From NCBI GenBank assembly GCA_043820105.1, contig JBDREC010000103.1:15405-79404 (forward strand): 64,000 nt of DNA, in the 5' to 3' direction. The translations under genes and the position numbers were made by a program. Numbering within the stretch: the stretch's first letter is position 1; every line of letters starts with the position of its first letter. The notes beneath the pieces are model-generated. The model had not been told where the DNA came from and did not search any database. It was given only the letters and a program-made list of their open reading frames with translations. Positions 11,159 to 63,986 of the stretch are shown piece after piece. This DNA is from Pseudomonadota bacterium (GTDB lineage: Bacteria; Bdellovibrionota_F; JAHFAK01; JBDREC01).

Positions 11159-11166
11159 CACATTTT

Positions 11167-11191
11167 AGCTTGTAGCTACCAGCTACAAGCT
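11167..11191. repeat. Palindromic intergenic element AGCTTGTAGCT-ACC-AGCTACAAGCT between convergent gltX and nlpD
   Basis: Perfect 11-bp inverted repeat with 3-nt loop; related copies at 1623-1650 and 5533-5560. Confidence 0.6.
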
Positions 11192-11200
11192 AGAATATAT

Positions 11201-11926
11201 TCAAAAATTAATATAACTTTCAGGATCAATTGATTCTACTCCTGAGCGTAATTCGAAGTGGAGATGGTTATTTTCTGCGTTTCCTGTGTTGCCAACTTCA
11301 GCGATATAATCTCCTTTTTGGACTTTATCGCCTTCTTTTACTAAGTTTTTGCTATTGTGTGCATAAACTGAGGTGAAATCTTGTTCGTGCTTGATAATTA
11401 CTAAATTTCCGTAGTCTTCTAGTTCTGATCCTGAATATACCACTACACCAGCTGCACAGGCTTTTATTTTGCTTCCTTTTGCTGCTTTTATATCTATACC
11501 ATGGTGTTTTTTGCCAGATCTATATCCATATTTTGATGTAATATTTCCAGATACTGGAGAAATGAATTGTAAAGTGCTTTTAGGTATTGCTTTTTCTTTT
11601 TTGGCAACTGGTGGTTTATAAGTATTTCTTTTTGCTGGTTTTGAAATAGCTTGGTCAATTCTAATAAGTCTGTCTGCACCTGGAATAAAGATTAGATCCC
11701 CTTCTGCAACTGACAAAGAAGTCATTTTATTTGCTTTAATAATATCTTTTTTAGCAATTTTATAAGCTTTAGATATCATGTCAAGGTCAACACCTTCAGT
11801 TACTTTATGATATACGCCGCCTTTTATGTCGATAATGTAGCTGTGGATTGGACCGCAGGAGGAAATTGATAATAATATTATGGCGTACAGCGTACAGAGT
11901 ACGGCGTGTTTAATTTTCAAATCCAT
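11201..11926 (-). CDS. nlpD: M23 family peptidase lipoprotein (NlpD-like)
   Basis: Lipobox (LSISSCG); HHGIDI ... YAHNS ... GNTGNAENNHLHFELR M23 zinc-site pattern; surE-pcm-nlpD order as in E. coli. Confidence 0.75.
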   Translation of the reverse strand: MDLKIKHAVLCTLYAIILLSISSCGPIHSYIIDIKGGVYHKVTEGVDLDMISKAYKIAKKDIIKANKMTSLSVAEGDLIFIPGADRLIRIDQAISKPAKRNTYKPPVAKKEKAIPKSTLQFISPVSGNITSKYGYRSGKKHHGIDIKAAKGSKIKACAAGVVVYSGSELEDYGNLVIIKHEQDFTSVYAHNSKNLVKEGDKVQKGDYIAEVGNTGNAENNHLHFELRSGVESIDPESYINF

Positions 11927-40222: not shown

Positions 40223-41212
40223 TTAAATAGAATCCGAGATGATACTTTTTACAATTTCAAAAATGTCAATTCCACTTTCTGCGGCGGCTGCTACAAATCC
40301 AGCATCTGGAGAAAGACATGGATTAATATTGATTTCAAGTACAAATGGATTATTGTTTTTATCAATTCTAAAATCAACCCTTGCATAACCCATAACATCA
40401 AAAACATTCCAACACTTTACAGATATATTTCTAAGTTTTTTTAATAAGGTATAATCTTTTTTCTCAAATTTAAAATTCCGCTTTGTATTGATATATTCAA
40501 AGGACTGTTCATCCCATTTTGCTTTATAAGCAATAATTTTAGGTTTATTTTCAGGAAAATTAATAAATTGAATTTCAGCACACGGCAAAACTGTTGGTGT
40601 TTTCTTTTGATTTCCAAGCAAAGCGATGTTAAATTCTCTGCCATCAATATATGATTCAATAAAATATTCATTTAGAATTATTTTATTTTTGTTCTTGTAC
40701 TTTATTAAGTCATTTTTTGTATAAAAAACAGACTTATCATTTAAGCCTTTTGATGCATGATCATAAATAGATTTTAATATATATGGGGGTTCAAATGAAA
40801 TATTATCATTTGATAAATCACTTAACAAAACCGAATTAGGAGTAGAAACATTATTTAGGCGTAATAATTTTTTTAATAATAATTTGTTTGTTGTTAAATT
40901 AAAGGTAAAAGCTTTTGAGCCTGTATATTTTATTCCCATTGAATCAAGCAATGCAGGAATGATAGCAGCAAGATTATCTTTATTTGCAATTGACTCAACC
41001 AAATTAAAAACAAATGATATTTTATTTTCTTTTAATTTTATTAATAGCTTTTCTAGGTTAAGGTTTACAGGAATTTCAATTGGATGATAAGCAAGCTTGC
41101 TTAAAGCATTTTTAATATATTTAACTTGAGTATATGTATCAAGATCATCTAAGGATGATTGAGAAGATAATTTGCCATATAATATTCCAATATTTTTCAT
41201 GTCTTGTTTCAT
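40223..41212 (-). CDS. ATP-grasp ligase, D-Ala-D-Ala ligase-like
   Basis: ATP-grasp C-terminal motifs (YIDGREFNIALLG; YARVDFRIDKNNNPFVLEININPCLS); 4-nt overlap with upstream ATP-grasp gene. Confidence 0.65.
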   Translation of the reverse strand: MKQDMKNIGILYGKLSSQSSLDDLDTYTQVKYIKNALSKLAYHPIEIPVNLNLEKLLIKLKENKISFVFNLVESIANKDNLAAIIPALLDSMGIKYTGSKAFTFNLTTNKLLLKKLLRLNNVSTPNSVLLSDLSNDNISFEPPYILKSIYDHASKGLNDKSVFYTKNDLIKYKNKNKIILNEYFIESYIDGREFNIALLGNQKKTPTVLPCAEIQFINFPENKPKIIAYKAKWDEQSFEYINTKRNFKFEKKDYTLLKKLRNISVKCWNVFDVMGYARVDFRIDKNNNPFVLEININPCLSPDAGFVAAAAESGIDIFEIVKSIISDSI

Positions 41213-43751: not shown

Positions 43752-44557
43752 TTAGATTCTGCCTAAAAAGTGGGCAAAATAAATTGTAAAAAACTTCAGG
43801 ATTTTAAATGTCTTTATTTAAAAAACAATTTCATTATAAGTTAGATTATATTTTCCGCAATAATATTTATAGCAAAAAAGGCTGGAATATTACCTGTTTC
43901 AGCCCTCAATATCCACAAGCTAAACCAAGACGCTTTATATTAAAAGAAATCGCAGTAAAATAAAGCTGCAATCGAAAATTTAATTTCCCACGATATCTAC
44001 ATCTGCAAAAACCGTATCCTCTTTTCAATGCTGATATCGTTCCCTCAATCGCATTTCTATTTTTCATCTCTTCTTTATACTCATCTGTCTTCATCAACTT
44101 TCTTGCTTCATCATGATCGACTACTCTCTGTCGCCAGACTGATAACAATTGATAACTAAAACCTGCATATTCCAGGTCAAGCTCTAATGCAATTTTCCAG
44201 TCTAATCTAAATATCAGATTTTGAATCGTTTGCCTGTCAGGAAGCTTTTCCAGAAACTGTAATATTGTTACACACATTAATAACCTCGGTGACACTGGTG
44301 GTCTTCCACCTTCTTTATACATCTGTTCGAAATCAGTATCTAATATTTTGGGAAATATAAATTCATGACATACCTTCACATGATCTCTGATTTCTGGAAA
44401 CACATTTAACATGATACCCGCCTTGAATAATGATTGTTGATTGTACTTTGATAAGTCCTTTGGCATCTATATTATATAAGCATTATCTGCACTTTGTAAA
44501 GATCTTGAGCTTAATTATTTGCTTAATATTTTAGCCCACTTTTTAGGCAGAATCTAA
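43752..44557. mobile_element. Internally deleted IS5/IS1182-like element (approx 806 bp) with perfect 24-bp terminal inverted repeats
   Basis: TTAGATTCTGCCTAAAAAGTGGGC at 43752-43775 is the exact reverse complement of 44534-44557; encloses a transposase ORF lacking the catalytic core. Confidence 0.75.
43906..44466 (-). pseudogene. Truncated transposase: IS5/IS1182-like N-terminal domain fused to C-terminal tail, DDE core missing
   Basis: N-terminal GRPPVSPRLLMCVTILQFL ... (DUF772-like) joined to C-terminal AIEGTISALKRGYGFCRCRYRG ... NIKRL; only 186 aa. Confidence 0.6.
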
Positions 44558-44712
44558 TTAAATTTTAAACCTATATCTTTGTAAATTGTTATTAAATTTT
44601 TAGTTTTGCTCTGACCCTAAAATTCCCAAAATTCCAACCATAAAATTCTGACCAAAATTTAAAAATTATTCTAAAATTATTGGCAATTGTAGAATGTCAA
44701 ATCCTAATCATA

Positions 44713-45000
44713 TTAAACTTTAGCTGCGCCAATGACACAGCTCAAAAGATATTGAACGCCATTGTTAAGGTTACCTGAAATGCAATAACTCATTTCGTCT
44801 GTTTCATTACCGCTAGTGCAACTGGGAACGACCATCCAGTATGAAGGTCCGGAACCCACACCGCAATCAGCACCTGAGGCGCTTTCTCCTGATTGGCATG
44901 ATTTGCCCCGCGTACTTGGCGTGGTAGCACCTGAGCCAGTCGAACAGTACAGTCTTTTTAAGTTGAGTAGAGTGTGTAATATTGGAGGAGAATACTTCAT
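44713..45000 (-). CDS. Small Cys/Gly/Ser-rich protein with conserved MKY...P.L...L..L.YC.TGSGA N-terminus (paralogue 1)
   Basis: ATG at 44998-45000; paralogue of 63233-63577 with the same N-terminal pattern and Cys roughly every 12-15 residues. Confidence 0.5.
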   Translation of the reverse strand: MKYSPPILHTLLNLKRLYCSTGSGATTPSTRGKSCQSGESASGADCGVGSGPSYWMVVPSCTSGNETDEMSYCISGNLNNGVQYLLSCVIGAAKV

Positions 45001-45301
45001 AATTACCACCTTTATAACTGAATAACGCTGAGAAGATACGCAACAGTTAGTAGCTTTTCATACTTACTTCTATTAATCTTTAACCTGATAGGTTACCTAT
45101 TTTAGTTATCACCTCGTGTGTGGGTTCTAATGCATGTGACCGAACAAACACTTAGGAAATAGAATTAAACTATGCAAAACCAAAAATATTGTCAATGTGG
45201 AATATTGTCAATTATATTTTCTTCACTAACTGAGCAGGTAGTAGTTATGGGACTGACATGCGTATTAATAATCAAGATTATGCATTAGAAAAAAATTCAA
45301 A

Positions 45302-45320
45302 GGGGTCAGGCCTTGACAAT
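45302..45320 (+). repeat. REP-like element copy (GGGGTCAGGCCTTGACA core) upstream of RAYT gene
   Basis: Same core at 45397-45420 (direct) and 46567-46588 (inverted). Confidence 0.5.
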
Positions 45321-45396
45321 AGACAACAAATCAATAATTTTACTGAAAAATATAGCTAACTTTTGAAAATACATGAAATTATCAATATTAGAAATA

Positions 45397-45420
45397 GGGG
45401 GGGGGCAGGCCTTGACATTC
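45397..45420 (+). repeat. REP-like element copy (GGGGGCAGGCCTTGACATTC) upstream of RAYT gene
   Basis: Core CAGGCCTTGACA shared with 45302-45320 and the inverted copy at 46567-46588. Confidence 0.5.
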
Positions 45421-45589
45421 GGCAGCAGGTTCCCTTTTATACAAAGTGTTTTTTTCCTTTAATTCTTTTTCTTTCTCCATTTTTAAGACAAATCTATAAA
45501 GACTTTGAGCTACTGAAGCATTATTAATTGAACTCTGTTTGAATATTAAGCTCCATATATTTAGGAACTAATCAATTTAGGGGTAATTT

Positions 45590-46582
45590 ATGCCTAGACC
45601 TAAAAGAATTGAATATGAAGGTGCTTGGTATCACGTCATGAATAGAGGTGCTAGCAAGAAAAACATTTTTCATTCACATGATGACAGGAACTTTTTTTTA
45701 AAAATGCTAGCGCATGTCAGTGATCAATGGAATTTTCAGACACATGCCTATTGTTTAATGACAAATCATTATCATTTGCTTGTGCATACACCAAATCTTG
45801 GCTTGTCAGAAAGTATGCGACATCTTTCTTCAATTTATACAATGAGATATAATAAGAAATATAAAAGGGATGGAGCATTGTTTAGAGGTAGATTCAAATC
45901 AATATTGTTAGATAGGGATGATTGTGCATCAGCAATATTAAGATACATTCACCAAAATCCCGTAAAGGCAGGTTTATGTAAAAATGTAGAATCATACAAG
46001 TGGTCTAGTCACAGAGCATATTTAAATGAAAAAAATAAACCGTCATTTCTATATACAGATGAGATATTGAAAGATTTTGCAAAGATTAGTTCTAAGGCAA
46101 GGCGAAAATTGCATGAGTTTGTGACTGGAAGAGAATCTAAAGATTTTATTAACTCTATAGAAGGGCCAAGACCTGTATCTGTAATGGGATCAGAGGGTTT
46201 TAGAGATTGGATAAAAGATAATTATTTATATAAAGTAAACAAAGATAAGTTAATTTCAACAGCAAGAAGTAATAAGCGCCCTGAAATTATACCAAAGCAA
46301 ATGTTATCATATGTTAGCTCTGAATTCAGTGTCAGTAAAAAAAGCATTATGGAAAATAAGTCTGGATCCATTGCAAATATACCAAGACTGACATATTTAT
46401 ATTTATTGCATAAAATTGCAGGTTTTACACATAATGAAATCGCTGAGATAAGCAAATCAGGAAACAAAGCTTCAGTAGCTCAAAACATTTATCGTTTTTC
46501 AAGGAGATTGGAAGAGGATGAATGTTTGGGCGAAAGGATTAAAGGTATGAAGGGGAATTTGTTGTCGAATGTCAAGGCCTGA
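45590..46582 (+). CDS. REP-associated tyrosine transposase (IS200-like HuH Y1 transposase) with C-terminal HTH-like extension
   Basis: YHVMNRG N-terminus, HuH motif HYHLLVH, catalytic Tyr context RYIHQNPVKAGL; flanked by inverted REP-like repeats. Confidence 0.7.
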   Translation: MPRPKRIEYEGAWYHVMNRGASKKNIFHSHDDRNFFLKMLAHVSDQWNFQTHAYCLMTNHYHLLVHTPNLGLSESMRHLSSIYTMRYNKKYKRDGALFRGRFKSILLDRDDCASAILRYIHQNPVKAGLCKNVESYKWSSHRAYLNEKNKPSFLYTDEILKDFAKISSKARRKLHEFVTGRESKDFINSIEGPRPVSVMGSEGFRDWIKDNYLYKVNKDKLISTARSNKRPEIIPKQMLSYVSSEFSVSKKSIMENKSGSIANIPRLTYLYLLHKIAGFTHNEIAEISKSGNKASVAQNIYRFSRRLEEDECLGERIKGMKGNLLSNVKA

Positions 46583-49338: not shown

Positions 49339-50748
49339 ATGACCAAAAAAGAACTGGATTTAATTTTACATGAAGGGGAAAACTATAAAATCGAGTTCAA
49401 AGAAAATGTTAACTCTGATTTGTCAAAAGAAATGGTTGCTATGGCAAATTCATCTGGAGGTAGGATATTTATTGGGATTAATGATAAAAACGAAGTAATA
49501 GGTGTGAAAGCAACAAATGCTTTGTTATCTAAAATTCAGAATATGGCCCAGGATTGTGATCCCTCAATTATTATCAACATTAATACTTATAAAAATATTT
49601 TAATTATTAATGTTAAAGAAGGTTTAAATAAACCATATCGCTGTAGTAAAGGTTTTTATACTAGGAATGGTTCAAATTCACAGAAAATGACAACCAGAGA
49701 GATAACTGAATTTGTGCAAGCAGAAGGTAATGTTAGGTTTGATGAAAAGCTTCGGGAAGATATAAATATAAGTAAAAAAATTAAAAAAGAACTGCTTAAT
49801 CATTATTTGCAATTAGCAAACATTAATAAGACAATGGATGATGAATTTATACTAGAAAATTTAGGAGTACTGGAGCAAAAGAATAAGAAATCATATCTTA
49901 ATAATGCTGGGCTATTGTTTTTTTGCGATTCTACTAACCCACATCTTCATTATGCAAATATTACTTGTGCTTTATACAAGGGCAGTGAAAAGCTAAATGT
50001 TTTGGACAGAAAAGATTTTTCATCTGATATAATTTCTAATATCGAAGATACCATGTTGTTTTTGAAAAAGCATTTAAATCTTAGATATGAAATAACATCA
50101 TTAAGAAGAAAGGAAATTCTTGAGCTGCCTGAAGTTGCTTTGCGTGAAGCAGTAGTCAACGCTGCTTGCCACAGAGACTATTTTGAAAAAGGTGCCAATA
50201 TTATGGTTGAGATATTTGATGATAGGGTCCAAATAACTAACCCTGGTGGATTGCCTAAAGGCTTGTTACCAGAAAAATTTGGAACCAGAAGCGTATCAAG
50301 AAATCCTTTAATCACTTCATTGTTCCATCGTGTTGGCTACATTGAAAAAATGGGAACAGGTATAGGTAGAATAAGAAAGTCCCTCAAGGAATCAGGTAAT
50401 TCAGAAGCTGTATTTGAATATGACAGTTTTTTTTCAGTGATATTTAAAAGATCTATCTTAGAAAATGGAGCTAGTTCAGACATACAAGTTACCGGACAAG
50501 TCACCGGACAAGTTCCCGAACATGTCACCAAACTACTTAGTATATGCAAAGGAGAGTTGTCTCGTAGTGAATTGCAGGATATATTAAAATTAAAGCACAG
50601 AGAGAACTTTGTGAATTTATATCTAAACCCAGCATTGGAATCTGCTTTTATCGAAATGACAATTCCAGGCAAACCAAGATCAAGCAAACAAAAATACCGC
50701 TTAACAAAAAAAGGGAAAGATTATTTAAAGAAACTGCCTGAAAATTAA
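49339..50748 (+). CDS. Schlafen/AlbA_2-like domain protein with HATPase_c_4-like domain and C-terminal wHTH (COG2865-type regulator)
   Basis: N-terminal KELDLILHEGENYKIEFKE ... ANSSGGRIFIGIND; central REAVVNAACHRDYF ... NPGGLP ... SRNPLI ... MGTGIGRI; VTGQVTGQV linker repeat; start at ATG 49339 with GGAG RBS. Confidence 0.6.
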   Translation: MTKKELDLILHEGENYKIEFKENVNSDLSKEMVAMANSSGGRIFIGINDKNEVIGVKATNALLSKIQNMAQDCDPSIIININTYKNILIINVKEGLNKPYRCSKGFYTRNGSNSQKMTTREITEFVQAEGNVRFDEKLREDINISKKIKKELLNHYLQLANINKTMDDEFILENLGVLEQKNKKSYLNNAGLLFFCDSTNPHLHYANITCALYKGSEKLNVLDRKDFSSDIISNIEDTMLFLKKHLNLRYEITSLRRKEILELPEVALREAVVNAACHRDYFEKGANIMVEIFDDRVQITNPGGLPKGLLPEKFGTRSVSRNPLITSLFHRVGYIEKMGTGIGRIRKSLKESGNSEAVFEYDSFFSVIFKRSILENGASSDIQVTGQVTGQVPEHVTKLLSICKGELSRSELQDILKLKHRENFVNLYLNPALESAFIEMTIPGKPRSSKQKYRLTKKGKDYLKKLPEN

Positions 50749-52980: not shown

Positions 52981-54804
52981 TTAATTAATTCTTTTTAAAT
53001 ATACATGTACTTGTTCATAAATTTCCTTATAAGTTCCATCTTTCTTCAACCAGTTATTTGTATCAGTAGATATCCAATCTTCTTTTTTATATTCTTTTTT
53101 TCCTTCCTTTTTTACATCTAATCTATTTTGTAATGAATTGATAATTTTTAAAATATAGTTATCAAAATCTTCTCCAATCTCCAAGCAATACTGTGAATTT
53201 TTTGAAATATATTTTTGACCGTGTAATGTTTTAAGTTTATCTTTTAAATTATCAATAGTTGAAATACTATTAATATCATTTTTGAAAAAATAGATTGCAC
53301 TCAAAGCAAGTATTACATCATTTATATAATTATTTTGAAGAATTTCATACTTCATAATATTATTGTTTTTTATCTGATTAATCTTTTCTGATATTCTATA
53401 AGATAGCATTAATTTATGAAATTGGTCTTCTTCATTTATTGTCATGCTAAAAATATTATCATAACAATGATCTGAAAAAACAAGTTTATATCTTCCTTTT
53501 GTAGATATTGGTATTTGGAGAAAAAAAGACATAAAAGATATTCCAATATCTATGTTCTTAATCTTTAAATGCAAAGGACTTTTACCAAAAGGATTACGGT
53601 ACTTGCTTTTTTCAACAGTTGCCCATTCACCGTCCTTTTTGTCATAAAAGATTCCAACATCATCAAGGAATTTAAAAATTTTAACTTGTATTCTATCACC
53701 TGAATGTAGATCTCTTGTGCTAATAGCATTTTGACTATTACTGGCAACAGCAATATCCTTTGAAATTTTTGAAATTTTTGATTTTTTATTTATTTTTGTA
53801 AGTCGCATTAGAATCTGTACATTGTCAGGCAATTCGTTTACAATTCTTGTTAATGTCTTTGTAGTCTGTCCACCATTAACAATTTGAAAATTAGTAATCT
53901 GTAGTTTATTTTCATTTAATATCTTAAAGTCTTCACATATTGAATTGATACCATTGTTTAATATCCAAAAATTGGAACGACTACCTTTTGAGTATTCGTG
54001 TTTAATTTTTGAATTGATTTCATTTTCTCCTTTATAATAACGGACATTTAAAGCTAAAATCATCTCTTTATGTTTTTCTATTATAGGCCTCAAGGAGTTC
54101 GCTTTTATACTCGTAACAATAGTTTCAATTTCGGTTTTATCGTTATCATCATAAAAGTTTGAACATTTTTTAAAATATTCTTTTTCTACAATATCTATGA
54201 TTATTTCATTTTTAGGCATTTCAGTATCATCATAAAGCATTTCAAGACGGTTATAGTCAAAAAAATCAGGATAAAAATTAATTCCTTTATCTTCATAATT
54301 AGTGAATAATGCCATTATGTCAGTTTTGATATTGGTAGAATCAAAGGTGTTGTCTATATAATAAAAGTAAATATTATAATTATTATTTTCAATATTTTGA
54401 GGTGTTAATAAAGTATTAATTTCGTTATCAATTATTTTTTGTAACTTTTTGTTCGGTTTTTGCTCATCATAATTTATTTTTAAAAGCCGATCTATAAATT
54501 TTTTATTTTTTCTAATCTCATCTGTATTTAATAGATTATTATTTGAATATTTGAATTGAAATACATATATATCATGGTTATTTTGATTAGTAAAAATAGC
54601 ATCATTCCCTAAATCATTTGACATATCAACAATGTGCTCTTTAATGAACTCATTAATGTCTATGCCATCGTAGTCAAATTCAATTATTTTCCTGCTAAAA
54701 CACTCTTTAATAATAAAATGACCAAATGCTGTACCATCATTAGGATAATTAAAGGTTTCTCTTAAATCTGAAACCTGATCTTTTATTCTTTCATAAAAAC
54801 TCAT
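52981..54804 (-). CDS. AIPR-like abortive-infection family protein (putative)
   Basis: N-terminal restriction-endonuclease-like region (YDGIDI ... GNDAIF ... IYVFQFKYS) and central FQIVNGGQTTKTL motif as recalled for AIPR; start set at ATG 54804 with AGGAGA RBS. Confidence 0.45.
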   Translation of the reverse strand: MSFYERIKDQVSDLRETFNYPNDGTAFGHFIIKECFSRKIIEFDYDGIDINEFIKEHIVDMSNDLGNDAIFTNQNNHDIYVFQFKYSNNNLLNTDEIRKNKKFIDRLLKINYDEQKPNKKLQKIIDNEINTLLTPQNIENNNYNIYFYYIDNTFDSTNIKTDIMALFTNYEDKGINFYPDFFDYNRLEMLYDDTEMPKNEIIIDIVEKEYFKKCSNFYDDNDKTEIETIVTSIKANSLRPIIEKHKEMILALNVRYYKGENEINSKIKHEYSKGSRSNFWILNNGINSICEDFKILNENKLQITNFQIVNGGQTTKTLTRIVNELPDNVQILMRLTKINKKSKISKISKDIAVASNSQNAISTRDLHSGDRIQVKIFKFLDDVGIFYDKKDGEWATVEKSKYRNPFGKSPLHLKIKNIDIGISFMSFFLQIPISTKGRYKLVFSDHCYDNIFSMTINEEDQFHKLMLSYRISEKINQIKNNNIMKYEILQNNYINDVILALSAIYFFKNDINSISTIDNLKDKLKTLHGQKYISKNSQYCLEIGEDFDNYILKIINSLQNRLDVKKEGKKEYKKEDWISTDTNNWLKKDGTYKEIYEQVHVYLKRIN

Positions 54805-54903
54805 AATAAATCTCCTATTTAAAAATTCAATTGTATCTATCATGTCATGAATTAATAGTCAAAATTCACTCAAGCTAATTAAAAAATTTGGTTCTCGTCC
54901 GTC

Positions 54904-55506
54904 TTACGATAACAACTTCGCGATAGATGGAACTATAAGATCGTGACTTAAACCTTGAGTATGCCGGGCGGAATGATCCAGATCAGGCATCTGGTTTTTT
55001 ATACATTTTGATTCCGTGTGATAATAAATATTATTCAATGCACCTTCGTGTATAAAACGCTTTTTAAGATTTGCTATATTTTTTTTATTTGAACCTCCCC
55101 AGACATACCATCTCCATGGAAAGACTCTATTTTCAGAATCACATTTGGGAGGTTTATCATAATTCGACAGTTCGATAATTGCTTCATCTAGTGAGGGATT
55201 ACATAAGTAAAACAAATTCTGAACCTGAATATATGAATTTCTGGAATATGTTTTGTTAGAATATTCATAGGCTTTTTCAACGATTGAACGAACATTCGGT
55301 AATAGTTTGTCATTTGACAGTTTAATTTTTTGAATTCCCGATATTGACAGATCAGTGGGTTTTGCAGAACCCGGGTTCTTTCCTGCAATTGCTCCAATGC
55401 ATGTATCGTTTGCTTCAGGTTTTGCAATAGATTCAAGATATATTCTTGTATCAAACCTGAAAATATTGGAGCCATCCTTTTTAAATATTGCCCAATAGAA
55501 AGCCAT
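54904..55506 (-). CDS. DUF1643-like protein
   Basis: CIGAIAGKNPGSAKPTD, IQVQNLFYL and WYVWGG resemble the DUF1643 pattern recalled from memory; GAGGTG RBS. Confidence 0.4.
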   Translation of the reverse strand: MAFYWAIFKKDGSNIFRFDTRIYLESIAKPEANDTCIGAIAGKNPGSAKPTDLSISGIQKIKLSNDKLLPNVRSIVEKAYEYSNKTYSRNSYIQVQNLFYLCNPSLDEAIIELSNYDKPPKCDSENRVFPWRWYVWGGSNKKNIANLKKRFIHEGALNNIYYHTESKCIKNQMPDLDHSARHTQGLSHDLIVPSIAKLLS

Positions 55507-56306: not shown

Positions 56307-58727
56307 ATGATTAACAAAGGAAAACTGGTGAATATGATGGATACTAAATATGGTTTTTCACATTTGCATTTGCATACCCAATATAGTCTGCTGGATTCAA
56401 CAATAAAAATAAGTGATCTTATAGAAACAGTTAAAAAACTAGACATGGACTCTGTAGCAATTACAGACCATGGAAATCTTATGGGAGCGATTGAATTCTA
56501 CAAGGAAGCAAAAAAACAGGATATAAAAGCAATTATAGGCTCTGAGGTTTATATTGCACAAACTGGGCGTTTTGATAAAAGTACAAAACTGCATCATCAT
56601 CTTGTTCTGCTCGCGGAAAACAATACTGGGTACATTAATCTCATAAAACTTGTCAGCATAGGATATACAGAAGGATATTATAATGTCCCAAGAATAGACA
56701 ACGAAGTTTTAAGGCAACATTCTGAAGGACTAATAGGACTATCTGGTTGTATGGGTGGAGAAATTCCGCATTACATTTTAAGAGATGAACTTTCCACAGC
56801 AATTAAAGCTGCAATGGAATATAAAACAATTTTTGGAGCTGAAGCATTTTATCTTGAACTTCTGGAAACAGGATTGTCAGGTCAGAAAAAAGTAAATGAC
56901 GGACTTATTCATATATCAAAAGAATGTAACATTCCCCTTGTTGCTACTAACAATTGTCATTATTTAAAAAAAGAAGAGCATCAGGTTCATGCAGTTTTAT
57001 CGTGTATTCAAGCAGGGAAAACATTAGATGAAATCGAAATTGAAACTGATCAGCTATATCTGAAATCAGCACATGAAATGCTGGACCTTTTCAAGGATCA
57101 TCCTGAAGCAATCCAAAACACAAAGAAAATTGCAGACAGATGCAACGTAGAAATTGAACTTGGCAGGAAACAGCTGCCTCATTTTCAGACACCGGAAAAA
57201 ATTTCTCATGCAGCTTTTCTTGAAAAACTTGCCTTTGAAGGATTGGATATGAGATTTGACACAATTATAAGCGATAGGAACATATCAAAATACACTAAGA
57301 GATTGAAACATGAACTTGAAGTTATAAATAACAAAGGATTTGCTGCATATTTCCTTGTGGTCTGGGATTATGTAAAATATGCCATGGAAGCAGGGATTCC
57401 AGTGGGACCTGGAAGAGGTTCCTCTCCAGGTTGTCTTGTTGCTTATTTGCTAGGAATAACAGACATTGATCCGGTAAGATACAGCCTGCATTTTGAAAGG
57501 TTTCTGAATCCTGACAGGGATATATTGCCTGATTTTGATATAGACTTCGGCTACGATCAAAGGGATGAAGTTATAGAATACATTACAAAAAAGTGTGGGA
57601 AAAACAAGGTATCCAAAATAATAACATATGTAACTTTCAGAGCAAGAAGTGTCATCAGGGATGTAGGAAGAGCTCTTAATATTCCATATGACGAGGTTGA
57701 TAAGGTAGTAAAGCTTTTATCTGAATTTTTTGATATGAGTCTTGAAAGAGCATTAGAGCTTAAACCAGAACTTAATAAAATACATGAAAAAAACAAAATA
57801 TACCAGGATCTAATTAGGTTTTCATTCACATTAGAGGGACTTAAGCGTCACACAGGTGTTCATACATGTGGCATTGTAATATCTCCAAAAGCACTTACCC
57901 AATATATTCCATTATATTGCAACACATCTGGTGATCAGATAAGTCAGTTTACAAAAGATGAACTGGAAGATATAGGACTTGTAAAATTTGATATTCTTGG
58001 TCTTAAAGCATTAACCGTTTTGGATAATGCCTGTAAACTGATAAATAAAAATGGTGATGAAATATTTGATATAAAACAAATACTACATGATGATCCAAAA
58101 GTATTTGAACTGCTTACATCAGGAAACACATCAGGTGTTTTCCAGTTTGAAAGTTGTGGAATTAAGGATATCATAAAAAAGATAAAACCAGACTGTTTTG
58201 AAGATATAATTGCAGCTTACGCATTATACAGACCAGGTCCATTAGCCAGCGGCATGACAGAAGATTTTTGGAAAAGAAAACATGGACTCATTGCAAGCAA
58301 TTATCCACATCCAAAGCTTGAAGATATTTTAAAAGTAACATATGGAATTATTGTCTACCAGGAACAGATAATGGAAGCAGCTTCAAGAATTGCAGGATTG
58401 CCTTTTCAACAGGCGGATATTTTACGCAGAATAATGGGCAAGAAGAAAGCCAATCAAATAGAAAAGCAAAAGGAAATCTTCGTAGAAGGTGCCAGGAAAA
58501 ATGATATATCATATGAAAAAGCAAATGAGATATTTGATCTTTTAGAATATTATTCAGGATACGGTTTCAACAAGGCACATGCTGCAGCTTATGCATTGAT
58601 CTCATACAGATGCGCATATCTTAAATGTCATTATCCTATGGAATATTCTGCAGCCTTAATATCTTCAGAAAAAGATAACCCTGAAAAGGCATTGAGATAT
58701 CTTAAGGAATGGAAAAGCATGAATTAA
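56307..58727 (+). CDS. dnaE: DNA polymerase III alpha subunit (DnaE), C-terminally truncated: PHP domain and polymerase core only (806 aa)
   Basis: PHP motif FSHLHLHTQYSLLD; polymerase-core GYGFNKAHAAAYALISYRCAYLKCHYP; ends about 45 residues after this motif, where a full-length DnaE would continue for several hundred residues. Confidence 0.7.
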   Translation: MINKGKLVNMMDTKYGFSHLHLHTQYSLLDSTIKISDLIETVKKLDMDSVAITDHGNLMGAIEFYKEAKKQDIKAIIGSEVYIAQTGRFDKSTKLHHHLVLLAENNTGYINLIKLVSIGYTEGYYNVPRIDNEVLRQHSEGLIGLSGCMGGEIPHYILRDELSTAIKAAMEYKTIFGAEAFYLELLETGLSGQKKVNDGLIHISKECNIPLVATNNCHYLKKEEHQVHAVLSCIQAGKTLDEIEIETDQLYLKSAHEMLDLFKDHPEAIQNTKKIADRCNVEIELGRKQLPHFQTPEKISHAAFLEKLAFEGLDMRFDTIISDRNISKYTKRLKHELEVINNKGFAAYFLVVWDYVKYAMEAGIPVGPGRGSSPGCLVAYLLGITDIDPVRYSLHFERFLNPDRDILPDFDIDFGYDQRDEVIEYITKKCGKNKVSKIITYVTFRARSVIRDVGRALNIPYDEVDKVVKLLSEFFDMSLERALELKPELNKIHEKNKIYQDLIRFSFTLEGLKRHTGVHTCGIVISPKALTQYIPLYCNTSGDQISQFTKDELEDIGLVKFDILGLKALTVLDNACKLINKNGDEIFDIKQILHDDPKVFELLTSGNTSGVFQFESCGIKDIIKKIKPDCFEDIIAAYALYRPGPLASGMTEDFWKRKHGLIASNYPHPKLEDILKVTYGIIVYQEQIMEAASRIAGLPFQQADILRRIMGKKKANQIEKQKEIFVEGARKNDISYEKANEIFDLLEYYSGYGFNKAHAAAYALISYRCAYLKCHYPMEYSAALISSEKDNPEKALRYLKEWKSMN

Positions 58728-58778: not shown

Positions 58779-60287
58779 TCAAGGAAGGGCACAGATGTTC
58801 TCCAGCTCCTCCAAAAGTTTCACCATCGCCAATGTATCCTGACCACAATAAACTTTAAGAGCCTTGTAGATCTTTTCCTTTATTTCTAATTCAGTTGAAT
58901 CTGAGATCATCTCTAAATATTTAAGTGAGGCTATTCCTCCTTCTCCGATTTCAAGATCGTGGTAATTCATGTTGGGAATAAAAGCAGGGAGCACTTTTTT
59001 AATGGATGCTGAACCCTCCTGATTTGGATGATATAAGAAGCGTTGTTTAAATGGGATCAATAGGTCTTTCATTTTTTGGTTAATTTCTAAAAGCTCCTTT
59101 TTATATTCAGGAAAAGCAGCGGCAAGCGATTTGTTGATAGTAGCTTCAAAAGGTTTATTGTAAACTATGACGGTTCCAGCACATTTGCCATTTTTACAAC
59201 AGGATGAAACAAGCATTTTGACCAAACCTGCTCTTGGATCAGAAAATTCATTGTGCAAATATTCAAGGTGTTCAAGTGTGCCACCCTTTTTTTTCTGGAT
59301 ATGCAGAGAAAACTGAAAGGGAACCTGTCCATAGGGTTTTGTTCCATCAAAAAGCGGAATAGCAGGAAAAATAGTTTCATAATCAAGAAAATATAGGGGA
59401 TATTTTAGCAGTTTTAAAAAATCGTCTATTTTTGCTTTATCCTTATAAATTTCACCATTTTGATAACTTTCAATATCAATTCTTTGTTTGCTGCTAAGAT
59501 CAAGGTCTAAAGGGATATCTCCGACCTTAATAATATTTTGATCTAAAAGTTTTTTAAGCTTATTTTTATTTCTTTTAAATATATTATAGACTGAATATTT
59601 TGGGATGCTACTCCAGCAGTAGTCAATAAAATCACAGTCAAAAGGATTGTTACAATGAGAACCCACAGGAATTTCAAACTCTTCAGACTGGGATAATATT
59701 TTCAAAAACTTCTGCACATTTCTTTTTACTTTAGCTTGTCCTTTAATTGCAGCTTCTGTTACATCTTCAAGAACAAAAAATTCAGAAAGATCAATTTCTC
59801 CATTCTTAATAAATTTATTATTTATATGCATTAATATTGATTTATTGATTTTATAGCCCGCGTTTTCAAAAACATACCGTTGAAAAGCAACATCATCAAG
59901 GTGATATTTTGCAACATGAGTGGATTGCTTAACTTCAATCATGTCCCAGCCCTGACCATCAGCTGCCTTTCTAAGAATATCAATCCTGCAAAACAAGCCC
60001 TCTGTGGTTGAAGCAGTTGCCTCAAAAATAATAGCCGAGCCGCCTGCTATATTTTTTTTCGTGGAATCAATAGCACCAGGAATATTTTTGTAATCTTCAG
60101 TAATCTCAATTCCAGCTTTAAAATATTTCTGTGCGAGTTTCCCAACTTCATGTCCCTGATCAAAAGTATGCTGTAAGGATAAAGGTATTTCTTCAGGTAA
60201 AAGATCTTTTCTGTGTTTATGAAGCCAAAGTCTGAGAGGACATTGGCAGCCTAAAAGATAGTTCGATTTTGAAAGTAAAAGTTGCAT
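58779..60287 (-). CDS. Predicted nuclease: Cas4-like PD-(D/E)xK domain with Fe-S Cys ligands fused to DUF2779-like (DnaQ-like) exonuclease domain
   Basis: N-terminal GCQCPLRLWL, RIDIL ... DMIEVKQS, C-terminal CNNPFDCDFIDYC Cys cluster; second half YFLDYETI ... VPFQFSLH. Confidence 0.5.
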   Translation of the reverse strand: MQLLLSKSNYLLGCQCPLRLWLHKHRKDLLPEEIPLSLQHTFDQGHEVGKLAQKYFKAGIEITEDYKNIPGAIDSTKKNIAGGSAIIFEATASTTEGLFCRIDILRKAADGQGWDMIEVKQSTHVAKYHLDDVAFQRYVFENAGYKINKSILMHINNKFIKNGEIDLSEFFVLEDVTEAAIKGQAKVKRNVQKFLKILSQSEEFEIPVGSHCNNPFDCDFIDYCWSSIPKYSVYNIFKRNKNKLKKLLDQNIIKVGDIPLDLDLSSKQRIDIESYQNGEIYKDKAKIDDFLKLLKYPLYFLDYETIFPAIPLFDGTKPYGQVPFQFSLHIQKKKGGTLEHLEYLHNEFSDPRAGLVKMLVSSCCKNGKCAGTVIVYNKPFEATINKSLAAAFPEYKKELLEINQKMKDLLIPFKQRFLYHPNQEGSASIKKVLPAFIPNMNYHDLEIGEGGIASLKYLEMISDSTELEIKEKIYKALKVYCGQDTLAMVKLLEELENICALP

Positions 60288-60727
60288 ATTTTAATCCTTA
60301 TTGATTTAACTCATTTTATTATAATGTATCAGCATGTCAATTAATGACTTCTTTTGTTGTATTTATATTTTTAAAGGATGTTGTTCATAATATGACTTCC
60401 TTTACCAAAAATATCTAAATTTTATTGCTTATTCAGGCTGTATAAATATCCTGATTTTAGTAAAATTGAAACAAATATCTTTATTAATGGATATCCAAAT
60501 AAAATAATCCATGGAACAGAATCGAAAATCCAAAGTAATACCTATTGGAGAAACCATAATAATAGCCAGTTTTCCAGTTTCAGATAGTAAATTTCTCATT
60601 TTAGTGATAAAAGTCTTTTGATCAACTTTTTCACATGACTTTTTTCATGGCAATAACTAAGATATATCACTTATTTAAAAAGCATTCTTTCAAGAGGAGT
60701 TATGGAAGCTAAAAGGAATCAACTACA

Positions 60728-62083
60728 ATGAACAAAAAAGAACTAGACTTCATTATTAAACAAGGTGAAGGTCAGCATATAGAGTTTAAAGAATCTTTTG
60801 ATAAATCTCTTGTTAAAGAAATAATTGCTTTTGCAAATGCTCAAGGGGGCAGGATTTATTTAGGGATAAATGACAAAGGACTAATAAAAGAAATTAATAT
60901 TACAAATTCCTTGAAATCTCAAATTCAGGATATTGCTAAAAATTGTGATCCTTCAATTCTTGTCAATTTAAGTGCATATAAGAATATATTAATTGTTAAT
61001 GTTCATGAAGGAAATGACAAACCTTATTCTTGTTCAAGTGGATTCTATTTAAGGATGGGAGCAAATACACAAAAGTTAACGCGAGATGAAATCATGCAAT
61101 TTGCCATTTCCGAAGGAAAAAAACTGTTTGATGAGCAAATTTGTGATGATTTTGTTTTTTTAGATGATTTTGATGAAGATAAACTGAAAAGTTACTTAAA
61201 AGAAGCAAAAATTGAAAGCGAGCTTGATAATAAATCAATCCTTTTAAACCTTGGTGTTGCAAAACTTATAAATAAGCAATTCAAATTTACGAATGCTGGG
61301 ATACTATTTTTTGCAAAAAAACCTTCAAAATATTTTATGACAACAAAGGTAGTTTGTGCTGAATATGCAACAAACGAAAAAGTTAAAATATTAGATCGTA
61401 AGATTTATGATGAGGGTATTTTAAAAAACCTAAAAAATGCAATTAACTTTATAAGTAAAAGAATTAAAATAGAATTTGAAATTAAATCTGCTAAAAGAAA
61501 GGAAATCCCACAATTTCCAGAGGAAGCTTTTAGAGAAGCAGTTGTTAATGCCATAATGCATAGAGATTATTTTGATAAAACCTCTGAAATTATGATTGAA
61601 TGTTACAGGAATAAAATTGTTGTTTATAATCCCGGAGGACTTGTCAAATGGTTAAGACCCGAAGAATTTGGAAAAATTAGTAAACTTAGAAACCCTTTAA
61701 TTGCTTCACTTTTATCAAGAACAATATATGCTGAAAAAATGGGAACTGGCATAAAAAGAATGAATAAGGCTATGATCAAAGCCGGATTGAAAGAGCCTGC
61801 TTATGAATATTATGACACTTCTTTTTATACACAATTTGATGATAAAAATATCGAAAAAAGAAAAGGGAAAAGTTCGGTGAAAAGTTCGGTAAAAAGTACG
61901 GTGAAAAGTTCGGTGAAAATTCTTAATCTTATTAAAAAAGATGCATATATTACAATTCCAGAAATCGCTAAAACCCTAAATTTAACAACAAGAGCAATTG
62001 AAAAGCAAATAGCAAACTTAAAAAAAACAGGCAAAATAAAAAGAATTGGCCCTGACAAAGGCGGATATTGGGAGGAATTATGA
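60728..62083 (+). CDS. Schlafen/AlbA_2-like domain protein with HATPase_c_4-like domain and wHTH (paralogue 2)
   Basis: KELDFIIKQGEGQHIEFKE ... ANAQGGRIYLGIND; REAVVNAIMHRDYF ... NPGGL ... RNPLIA ... MGTGIKRM; KSSVKSSVKSTVKSSVK linker from a 15-bp tandem repeat. Confidence 0.6.
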   Translation: MNKKELDFIIKQGEGQHIEFKESFDKSLVKEIIAFANAQGGRIYLGINDKGLIKEINITNSLKSQIQDIAKNCDPSILVNLSAYKNILIVNVHEGNDKPYSCSSGFYLRMGANTQKLTRDEIMQFAISEGKKLFDEQICDDFVFLDDFDEDKLKSYLKEAKIESELDNKSILLNLGVAKLINKQFKFTNAGILFFAKKPSKYFMTTKVVCAEYATNEKVKILDRKIYDEGILKNLKNAINFISKRIKIEFEIKSAKRKEIPQFPEEAFREAVVNAIMHRDYFDKTSEIMIECYRNKIVVYNPGGLVKWLRPEEFGKISKLRNPLIASLLSRTIYAEKMGTGIKRMNKAMIKAGLKEPAYEYYDTSFYTQFDDKNIEKRKGKSSVKSSVKSTVKSSVKILNLIKKDAYITIPEIAKTLNLTTRAIEKQIANLKKTGKIKRIGPDKGGYWEEL

Positions 62084-63138
62084 AGGCCACCAAAGAATCC
62101 AATCCTACCTATCAGAATGCAATTACCATAGTTGAGATATTTCTTTATTTAAAGCAGTTTCCAAGAGGTGTTTTATCATCTCAAATACAAGAGGAATATT
62201 ATCAGGATAAGGATGACAGGACCTTTCATAGAGTTAAAAAAGCCCTGGAAGATTTTCTTTTTGATCCTCAAGGTGATAAGGTATTCTTTTTTGAAGGCGA
62301 GGGTAAAAATCAGACTATACGCTTGCATCCAAAGCATTTTAATACCTCTGATGTAATGGAATGGCATCTCTTTGGTTTAATGATGTCCAATGTAATGATG
62401 ACCAACATCAAGGGTGATGTGGATTCCTCGCCTGATATTAAAAGCGGGGTGCTGCAATTGCGTGATCTTATTGTTAGTAATCTTGAAGCTGATTTTTATA
62501 AGAGTAATGCAGATGGTGAAATAAGCGAAGTTAGAGAAAATCTATTAAATAAAATTAAGAAGAAATATTACTGCAAGAAAGTTGGGCAGAAGATTTATGG
62601 CAAAGATGACAAATCAACTGAGATCCTTGATAAAATTACACAGGCTTTATATAAAGAAAACAAGCTAAAGATTCATAAGTATAAAAATGAAAAAAAGAAA
62701 GACTGGGTATTTTCACCTTATACACTTTTATCATATAATGATGCCTTTTATGTAATGGGAAAGCTTGCAAAGGGCTATATGCTTACCCTTGCTATTGACC
62801 GGATTGATGAGCTTGAAGTTTTGAAGAAAACCTTTAATTATCCCAAAGACTATCATCCCTCAGAGATTCTCAATAAAGGCTTTGGAGTAGGGGACGTGAA
62901 TCAGGAGGCTGTTAAAGTTGAGCTCTTGTTTGACCAGGCTGTTTCCTATCTAATCACAGAACGTTTTTGGCATCATTCACAAATGATTACAGAAAAAGAA
63001 GATGGTTCTGTTTTACTGGAAATGGAAGTGCCTGACAGCTTTGAGTTAAGAAAGTTTGTTTTGAGTTTTGGGTCAAATGTGAAAGCATTAGCGCCAGATT
63101 CGCTTGGACAATTTATTAAAGAAGATAAGAGCAAATAG
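62080..63138 (+). CDS. WYL-domain transcriptional regulator (wHTH-WYL-WCX; BrxR/CapW/PafBC-like)
   Basis: N-terminal wHTH, central WVFSPYTLLSYNDAFYVMGK WYL-like segment, C-terminal WCX-like region; start ATG 62080 overlaps upstream stop as ATGA. Confidence 0.5.
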   Translation: MKATKESNPTYQNAITIVEIFLYLKQFPRGVLSSQIQEEYYQDKDDRTFHRVKKALEDFLFDPQGDKVFFFEGEGKNQTIRLHPKHFNTSDVMEWHLFGLMMSNVMMTNIKGDVDSSPDIKSGVLQLRDLIVSNLEADFYKSNADGEISEVRENLLNKIKKKYYCKKVGQKIYGKDDKSTEILDKITQALYKENKLKIHKYKNEKKKDWVFSPYTLLSYNDAFYVMGKLAKGYMLTLAIDRIDELEVLKKTFNYPKDYHPSEILNKGFGVGDVNQEAVKVELLFDQAVSYLITERFWHHSQMITEKEDGSVLLEMEVPDSFELRKFVLSFGSNVKALAPDSLGQFIKEDKSK

Positions 63139-63232: not shown

Positions 63233-63577
63233 TTAAAAACCTACTTCAGTATTTGAGCGGCCTTGAGAACATGTAGTTCCAACATTTGCACTGCCTTCAT
63301 AGCAGCCACCATTTACAACGGTATTATTGTTATTAGTTCCAGCATTGCAAACACCATAATAAAAACTTCCAGATGTATTTGATGGTCCAGTGTAACATCC
63401 GCGGTTAACGCCTACATTGGCTCCAGTTCCGGTTGAACAATAAGAATCTCCGCTTATTCCACTTCCGGATCCGCAAAGGGTGTTGGATGCTATGCTTCCA
63501 CTTGCACCTGAACCTGTATAGCAATAGTTTAAGCCAGGCAATGAAATGTTTATAAGCTTAGGCGTTAGGTATTTCAT
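63233..63577 (-). CDS. Small Cys/Gly/Ser/Asn-rich protein with conserved MKY... N-terminus (paralogue 2)
   Basis: ATG at 63575-63577 with GGAGA RBS 8 nt upstream; Cys at regular approx 13-residue intervals; paralogue of 44713-45000. Confidence 0.55.
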   Translation of the reverse strand: MKYLTPKLINISLPGLNYCYTGSGASGSIASNTLCGSGSGISGDSYCSTGTGANVGVNRGCYTGPSNTSGSFYYGVCNAGTNNNNTVVNGGCYEGSANVGTTCSQGRSNTEVGF

Positions 63578-63758
63578 TATTTTTTTCTCCAGAATATTAG
63601 AATAAAAACCCAATAATAATGCTCATGTATTTGAGTTCTTTTATTTATTATTTTATACCTATTTGCAAACAAAAAACTATATAAAATTAAAAATATGCAC
63701 TTTTCCATTCTGTGGTATTTTCCTGATAGTTTTGAATATAGTTAAATATTATGTTTAC

Positions 63759-63986
63759 TTACATCTTTCCATTACAATACCACCTGGTTTTGCCATCAAC
63801 TTTTTCAGAATAAATTGGAACACCTGCTTTTTCAATAGCTTCAATGTCCCTGCGTAAAGTTCTTAAAGATACCTTGAAATCTAAAATAATTTTTTGATGA
63901 ATATCTTCAAGGCTTACTCCAAACCTTGCTTTTTCTATAATTTTACAGATTCTTAAAATCCTTGCTACCTGATCTCCTCTGGCCAT
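63759..63986 (-). CDS. Small HTH DNA-binding protein (DeoR/HTH_11-like, resembling the N-terminal domain of WYL regulators)
   Basis: ATG at 63986 with GGAGG RBS 5 nt upstream; ARFGVSLEDIHQKIILDFKVSLRTLRRDIEAIEKAGVPI HTH pattern; 75 aa only. Confidence 0.5.
   Translation of the reverse strand: MARGDQVARILRICKIIEKARFGVSLEDIHQKIILDFKVSLRTLRRDIEAIEKAGVPIYSEKVDGKTRWYCNGKM

Follow-up and report, generated by a model that had tools for sequence, protein, structure and literature searches.

Does a gene for a Schlafen-type protein that overlaps a gene for a WYL-domain regulator mark a new two-gene system, or have two known parts come to lie together in one lineage? The question is raised by a 64,000-nucleotide (nt) stretch of a bacterial contig (JBDREC010000103.1, positions 15,405–79,404; assembly GCA_043820105.1, Pseudomonadota bacterium), hereafter the window, in which open reading frame (ORF) A, or pSlfn2 (60728–62083, + strand), runs directly into ORF B (62080–63138, + strand). 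An earlier reading made without database searches (the sequence-only reading) had proposed the two as a distinctive ATPase-then-WYL pair. On balance, and with confidence only a little above even, we favour a lineage-specific secondary juxtaposition of known parts that are now one transcription unit, in which the WYL protein probably regulates its own expression through the shared promoter. We speak of a local juxtaposition, not of a new two-gene system, because the pairing was not found in relatives with examinable neighbours.

Two known families in one overlapping pair

ORF A encodes 451 amino acids (aa), in which a Schlafen-type nuclease domain, a minimal GHKL/histidine-kinase-like ATP-binding domain and a C-terminal winged helix-turn-helix (wHTH) follow one another. 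In Pfam, SLFN_AlbA_2 matches residues 14–117 (60767–61078, + strand; E = 3.3e-20, 73.2 bits against a cutoff of 25.3), HATPase_c_4 matches residues 286–367 (61583–61828, + strand; E = 9.2e-19, 67.7 bits), and residues 397–439 (61916–62044, + strand) are matched by HTH_24 (33.1 bits) and HTH_11 (29.0 bits). The catalytic motif Ex4ExK is intact (E14-GQHI-E19-F-K21), with G13, E14, E19, F20, K21 and E22 invariant across 35 aligned homologues. The HATPase_c_4 region of 35 homologues likewise keeps E270, N274, N301-P-G303-G304, G339 and G341 invariant; by inference N274 would be N-box-like, N301-P-G303-G304 G1-like with Asn replacing Asp, and G339/G341 G2-like.

An AlphaFold (AF2) model of ORF A, built on an alignment of 35 homologues, is confident (mean predicted local distance difference test score, pLDDT, 85), and Foldseek matches it over its full length to the uncharacterised structure 3LMM (E = 2e-21). 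The same searches match its N-terminal domain to SLFN5/11/12/13/14 and the SAMD9 tRNase, its middle domain to the catalytic domains of the histidine kinases HK853, CpxA and VanS, and its C-terminus to MarR and Z-alpha wHTH folds. The family is very large, with 1989 homologues at E ≤ 1e-10, many of them archaeal and the best non-self match 64% identical; relative to these homologues ORF A is intact and full length. Because its architecture, Ex4ExK motif and fold match the catalogued pSlfn-HisKinase-HTH class, we count ORF A as an ordinary member of an already known kind. In a classification of 5930 prokaryotic Schlafens, whose active site is defined by the motif Ex4(E/D)xK, HisKinase fusions (34%) and HisKinase-HTH fusions (19.2%) are more frequent than any other architecture, and 69.6% of the genes have a known defence gene within 10 kb (bioRxiv 10.1101/2025.07.24.666596); a 2026 comparative study places a Schlafen, minimal histidine kinase and wHTH protein beside BREX-type loci in at least 1017 taxa (PMC12839542). 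The class is predicted to act as a stress- or phage-activated ribonuclease (RNase) effector, promiscuous in defence loci, and ORF A would itself be an RNase.

ORF B encodes 352 aa from an ATG start and carries a WYL domain at residues 181–247 (62620–62820, + strand; Pfam E = 5.9e-7, 29.8 bits against a cutoff of 21.8) and a WCX domain at residues 277–343 (62908–63108, + strand; Pfam E = 2.1e-13, 50.8 bits against 23.9), preceded by a divergent N-terminal domain that is probably a wHTH and whose role in DNA binding is plausible. The PADLOC WYL model matches the protein at 1.5e-23. A phmmer search of all PDB chains at E ≤ 1 returned weak matches to DriD and PafC entries (E about 6e-5), which span the last WYL strand (LAIDRI motif, R241) and the WCX domain; chains named BrxR or CapW were not among the matches. 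Run exhaustively over 1.84 billion representatives, phmmer gave 4859 matches at E ≤ 1e-3 and just five at E ≤ 1e-30, so that ORF B belongs to a tiny subfamily, defined by its unusual 175-residue N-terminal region; the N-terminal domain also occurs as a stand-alone 85-aa ORF at another locus (L179). In an AF2 model built from 5 sequences the WYL and WCX part reaches a pLDDT of 70–90, and residues 9–81 show a helix-helix-helix-strand-strand pattern at a pLDDT below 50. ORF B, too, is intact and full length relative to its homologues, and within the wHTH-WYL-WCX class of transcription factors it is a rare member with a divergent N-terminus. A protein 59% identical to it (P0002, MFH1728376.1), encoded on a 13,589-bp contig and close in accession number to ORF B (MFH1729781.1), is probably a paralogue in the same metagenome-assembled genome (MAG).

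All Pfam matches cited for the two ORFs exceed the gathering score, and the domain matches of both lie far above chance level; profile searches thus bear out the four assignments (AlbA_2 and HATPase_c_4 in ORF A, WYL and WCX in ORF B) of the sequence-only reading.

The junction between the two genes, read directly, is also as that reading had it. It runs GAA TTA TGA, with the ATG of ORF B at 62080, giving a 4-nt ATGA stop/start overlap (62080–62083, + strand) just after a Shine-Dalgarno-like GGGAGG (62070–62075, + strand). Such an overlap is an ordinary feature of compact operons, and the window holds another at 41209–41212. Given the overlap, no intrinsic terminator between ORF A and ORF B, and genes 3′ of ORF B that converge on it in the ORF map, the two are almost certainly co-transcribed, ORF B being the last gene of the unit and lacking its own promoter region.

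The promoter and operator of this unit presumably lie in the 440 nt (60288–60727) that separate ORF A from a divergently oriented DUF2779/Cas4-like gene (58779–60287, − strand; Pfam, ORF map). Beside the DUF2779 gene, on the minus strand, is a promoter-like site (TTGACA-16-TAAAAT, 60340–60313). Nearer to ORF A, 80–120 nt upstream of it, is an inverted repeat (60605–60647; 17-nt arms, 82% complementary, 9-nt spacer), which is a weak candidate operator because the DNA is AT-rich and the repeat has no counterpart upstream of a homologous WYL gene at locus L001, where we found neither an inverted repeat nor any obvious shared motif. The two copies of a direct repeat, ATGACTTC(T/C)TTT, stand at 60344–60355 and 60392–60403, 48 nt apart and next to the DUF2779 gene's strong promoter-like site (2 matches against 0.25 expected, two being reached in 3 of 100 shuffles).

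The pairing is not shared by the surveyed relatives of either gene

From the ATPase side we surveyed one genome per GTDB species, taking 80 loci of homologues 39–59% identical to ORF A; in 41 of them a same-strand ORF starts within 300 nt of the ATPase stop. None of these 41 downstream genes encodes a WYL protein. They are heterogeneous (HsdM/N6_Mtase in 4, type I S subunits in 4, nucleotidyltransferases in 3, and many singletons), and 12 of them overlap the stop of the ATPase homologue, the overlapping partners including HsdM, an Eco57I-like methylase, a TOTE-system primase and a 1005-aa protein. When all ORFs of 85 ATPase loci (~760 kb) were searched with a WYL profile made from 80 diverse relatives, just one WYL gene appeared, in convergent orientation, non-adjacent and 2.5 kb away (L073). 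The two closest ATPase homologues among those whose contexts were examined lie between a PLD-SNF2 helicase and an MmeI-type methylase (P0007, 64% identical to ORF A) and between sensor kinases (P0017, 60% identical). Viral contigs held only 4 remote ATPase relatives and no WYL relatives, and plasmids held 17 remote ATPase matches; an apparent 'DeoR regulator' neighbour at one plasmid locus (H8) proved to be the split-off helix-turn-helix (HTH) of the ATPase gene itself.

Two archaeal MAG loci in this survey, from Methanosarcinales and Woesearchaeota, show a different arrangement, in which a protein of ~1005 aa starts in an ATGA overlap with the stop of the Schlafen homologue (L012, 3581–6595; L014, 4550–7582). 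These proteins share 77% identity and lack any Pfam match; they are a candidate conserved partner of this Schlafen family.

From the WYL side the result is the same: none of 80 metagenome loci of WYL relatives (469 kb, searched with hmmsearch and tblastn) contains an AlbA_2/HATPase_c_4 gene. Within the rare subfamily itself, the L001 member (51% identical to ORF B) has a divergent lipoprotein-like gene upstream, and neither it nor the L176 member (35–39% identical) has a Schlafen neighbour; the sequence of L175 is too short to tell. None of the top 120 matches of either ATPase paralogue lies on the 13,589-bp contig of P0002. The proposal of a distinctive or recurrent pair is therefore not supported, since the surveys show no conserved pairing in either direction (0 of 41 downstream genes, 0 of 80 WYL loci), which is what the sequence-only reading had itself set down as counting against it.

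That reading had also started from the premise that WYL regulators normally sit upstream of what they control, which is too strong. Among the 52 WYL-relative loci with enough upstream sequence, and with crude ORF calling, a co-directional ORF ends within 150 nt upstream of the WYL gene in 28, and in 13 of those 28 the gap is at most 20 nt or the genes overlap. A patatin-like phospholipase gene lies directly upstream on the same strand in 20 of the 80 loci, and one further relative (P0005) follows a nitroreductase gene; 'gene, then WYL' is thus a frequent order in this group. In the literature, BrxR comes third among the ORFs of its pEFER island, and defence genes lie upstream in 77 of 347 BrxR homologues, defined by BLASTP E < 1e-5 against BrxR of E. 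fergusonii (PMC9122601).

The succession of a patatin-like gene (~410–500 aa) and a WYL-WCX gene is seen at L094, L097, L102, L106, L109, L110, L112 and L129, at L130, L138, L140, L145, L152, L153, L156 and L159, and at other loci; a two-term full-text search of the literature, going by titles and abstracts, brought up no obvious description of it. At L176 (6001–10421) the WYL gene instead heads a tight co-directional row of WYL, a 172-aa gene, Smr, a 77-aa gene and a NERD-UvrD helicase, with a 199-aa DnaB_C-like fragment and an nSTAND-type ATPase on its flanks. The WYL protein at the head of the row has 514 aa, with ~130 extra C-terminal residues of unknown nature, and we regard the row as a candidate WYL-controlled defence operon.

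A probable secondary juxtaposition, weighed against its rivals

Four observations support secondary juxtaposition: the pairing is unconserved on both sides, the closest ATPase homologues lie in other operons, ATPase homologues elsewhere overlap quite different downstream genes, and the G+C content at third codon positions (GC3) differs sharply between ORF A (0.195) and ORF B (0.334). On this account, ORF A and ORF B would have been brought together secondarily in a defence-island-like stretch rich in mobile elements, and both would be transcribed from the 440-nt region upstream of ORF A, ORF B being translated from its own Shine-Dalgarno motif, by termination-reinitiation at the ATGA, or by both. 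By analogy with characterised WYL proteins (PMC11662680), and with 'gene, then WYL' a frequent order among its relatives, ORF B is probably a ligand-responsive autoregulator of a promoter in 60288–60727. Its dimer would repress that promoter until released by a ligand, which by analogy with CapW, DriD and PafBC may be single-stranded DNA (ssDNA) or a nucleotide, and ORF B would thereby set both its own level and that of the Schlafen effector. DNA binding, ligand and repression are all taken from this analogy, and we infer the operator step because only one imperfect inverted repeat (60605–60647) is available for it.

Several points weigh against this account. The N-terminal 175 residues of ORF B have no Pfam HTH match; hhalign against canonical WYL-family HTHs does place RTFHRVKKAL in the register of the recognition helix, with a probability of 4.6% that is not significant; and the N-terminal 165 residues are poorly modelled by AF2 (pLDDT below 50). 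Upstream of ORF A there is a single inverted repeat, with imperfect arms and in AT-rich sequence. Finally, the surveys covered at most 80 sampled loci each, with crude ORF calling, and the neighbours of P0002 were not read, so that the genome could still hold a second Schlafen-WYL pair.

The strongest rival, which we nevertheless think rather unlikely, denies any functional link: ORF B would be the stranded regulator of a lost or replaced system, now acting in trans or as an orphan. A member of its subfamily does head a different tight operon (L176), and after ORF B come only convergent small ORFs and an orphan 75-aa fragment with a WYL-type HTH, which suggests local decay; the GC3 difference and the unconserved pairing fit this rival as well. 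Against it, both ORFs are intact and full length, and the 4-nt overlap with its Shine-Dalgarno motif keeps ORF B expressed from the ORF A transcript, so that ORF A would in any case respond if ORF B autoregulated the promoter that they share.

A more ambitious alternative, to which we give no more than an outside chance, sees in the pair a dedicated defence module: a WYL repressor that senses ssDNA or a nucleotide would silence the Schlafen RNase until DNA damage or infection licenses it, and the pair would be a working sensor-effector cassette, one of an undescribed class of 'exchangeable effector then WYL' modules. The tight overlap and the recurrent patatin-then-WYL pair (20 of 80 WYL-relative loci) speak for it, as does the behaviour of known proteins: WYL repressors sense ssDNA and derepress their own operon, CapW, BrxR and DriD binding ssDNA through the WYL domain and so releasing or remodelling promoter binding (PMC11662680), and the tRNase of human SLFN11 is stated to be activated by ssDNA (bioRxiv 10.1101/2025.07.24.666596). 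But no second Schlafen-WYL pair appeared in the ~165 loci surveyed, the WYL proteins that follow patatin genes are just 22–38% identical to ORF B, and the L001 and L176 members have other partners. In phage assays on seven Schlafens, which may or may not have included the HisKinase-HTH type, only DUF262 and Ig-like fusions gave protection (bioRxiv 10.1101/2025.07.24.666596).

Were the cassette real, it would be a transcriptional counterpart of the ssDNA-activated tRNase SLFN11, with patatin-then-WYL as its common form. Least credible, and in our view very improbable, is a toxin-first arrangement in which ORF B neutralises the Schlafen RNase by protein-protein contact and also represses the operon: the gene order and overlap do resemble those of higBA- and mqsRA-type modules, in which the toxin gene comes first and overlaps that of its DNA-binding partner, and the active site of ORF A is intact, but nothing here points to an interaction between the two proteins, and homologues of ORF A overwhelmingly do without such a partner and therefore need no antitoxin.

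Any functional pairing would join bacterial Schlafen nucleases to WYL sensors of DNA damage, and would offer a simple system in which to ask what activates the commonest, still uncharacterised Schlafen architecture. As a single non-recurrent adjacency of two known families, the juxtaposition that we favour mainly documents ordinary defence-island mosaicism. More useful are its by-products: the patatin-then-WYL pair, a period-4 linker at a point of module exchange, and identically truncated dnaE genes near the rare WYL subfamily.

A period-4 linker at the point of module exchange

The sequence-only reading correctly placed a paralogous ATPase upstream in the window. This gene, pSlfn1 (49339, or 49321, to 50748, + strand), encodes AlbA_2 and HATPase_c_4 domains, a VTGQ repeat linker and a Fic-like_C wHTH (Pfam); it is 41% identical to ORF A and has no WYL neighbour. 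Both paralogues carry in-frame 12-nt tandem repeats in the linker, as had been noticed: 4.4 copies encoding a KSSV tetrapeptide in ORF A (KSSVKSSVKSTVKSSVK; 61867–61919, + strand) and 3.2 copies encoding VTGQVTGQV in pSlfn1 (50484–50522, + strand). In the AF2 model of ORF A only the linker (residues 376–392, pLDDT below 50) is disordered.

These repeats are not special to the pair. Period-4 repeats, scored when the linker shows 6 or more period-4 identities out of 12, occur in 73 of 113 full-length homologues against 0 of 113 shuffled tails, and as the repeat sequence varies (KDTV, ERVG, KDLE, GLVD and others in homologues P0006–P0125) the period of 4 stays constant; judged from these sequences, the repeat linker is a trait of the family. 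The body of pSlfn1 is up to 74% identical to proteins that end in HTH_24 instead of Fic-like_C, so that the linker between HATPase_c_4 and the wHTH marks a point at which DNA-binding modules are exchanged, and because the 12-nt repeat is in tandem at the DNA level, its copy number could vary by slippage.

Surroundings of the pair

The 44–64 kb part of the window looks like a defence-island-like mosaic of defence genes and mobile elements. Transposases lie at 43906–46582, comprising a DDE transposase fragment and a 330-aa ORF (45590–46582, + strand) whose N-terminal domain is an IS200-like/REP-associated tyrosine (Y1) transposase and whose C-terminal region is weakly similar to the DnaA C-terminus (NCBIfam E about 2e-5). 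A 620-aa AIPR/AbiU-like gene (52981–54843, − strand; PADLOC AbiU 1.3e-33, Pfam AIPR 2.8e-32), located between the two Schlafen paralogues, adjoins a co-directional 200-aa ORF of unknown function (together 52981–55506, − strand). Rfam and tRNA scans of the window were empty.

Next comes a short dnaE of the DnaE1 type (56307–58727, + strand; 806 aa), which matches positions 5–801 of the 1146-position model PRK05673 and thus has no C-terminal third; the missing remainder was not found in the window with the E. coli DnaE C-terminus as query. On L176, an unrelated contig of 26% G+C, a degenerate 407-aa DnaE fragment (10566–11789) breaks off at this very residue, and a member of the rare WYL subfamily of ORF B lies 3 kb away. 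The truncations may reflect a dnaE that is naturally split, a site-specific insertion within dnaE, or decay of the copies; no att-like DNA shared by the two truncated ends was found. We considered and rejected an association of dnaE with WYL genes as a system, because the cases are too heterogeneous: L111 has a full-length housekeeping DnaE1 beside a CRISPR-associated WYL gene and L133 a DnaE2, and both adjacencies look coincidental.

Two small ORFs follow ORF B on the opposite strand. The first (63233–63613, − strand; 126 aa), convergent on ORF B, contains a very high proportion of Gly, Ser, Cys, Asn and Thr (CYTGSGASGS…CGSGSGISGDSYCSTGTG) and has no Pfam, PADLOC or NCBIfam match; it may be a precursor of a secreted or modified peptide, or a spurious ORF. 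The second (63759–63986, − strand; 75 aa) has its only match in the HTH_11-type domain at the N-terminus of WYL-family regulators (E = 3.9e-10, local WYL profile), with no WYL or WCX remnant in any frame downstream of it, and is either an orphan or a truncated regulator.

Comparison with known systems

ORF A stands closest to the pSlfn-HisKinase-HTH class, with which it shares the order of the three domains, the intact Ex4ExK motif and a defence-island context, and whose only solved relative (PDB 3LMM, DIP2311) it matches over its full length. Nothing in its architecture sets it apart; what does is the downstream WYL neighbour, seen in no other surveyed locus. With the phage-activated tRNase RorSlfn5 it has in common the Schlafen nuclease domain, E14 and E19 being equivalent to E15 and D20 of RorSlfn5, but the sensor of RorSlfn5 is immunoglobulin-like and recognises the T5 tail assembly chaperone, whereas ORF A has a GHKL-like domain and a wHTH (bioRxiv 10.1101/2025.07.24.666596).

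ORF B resembles the BrxR and CapW repressors in its WYL and WCX core, its probable N-terminal DNA-binding domain and its defence-island-like context; unlike them, it is the last gene of its unit and neither first nor divergent, and in place of inverted-repeat operators in a promoter of its own there is one imperfect repeat upstream of ORF A. Among solved structures its best sequence matches are DriD and PafBC, WYL activators of DNA-damage responses, which differ in having no N-terminal similarity to ORF B and in targeting DNA-repair genes rather than a Schlafen gene. The patatin-then-WYL pairs have another effector and only distantly related WYL proteins, but share with ORF A and ORF B the same plan: a putative effector gene followed directly by a WYL-WCX gene on the same strand.

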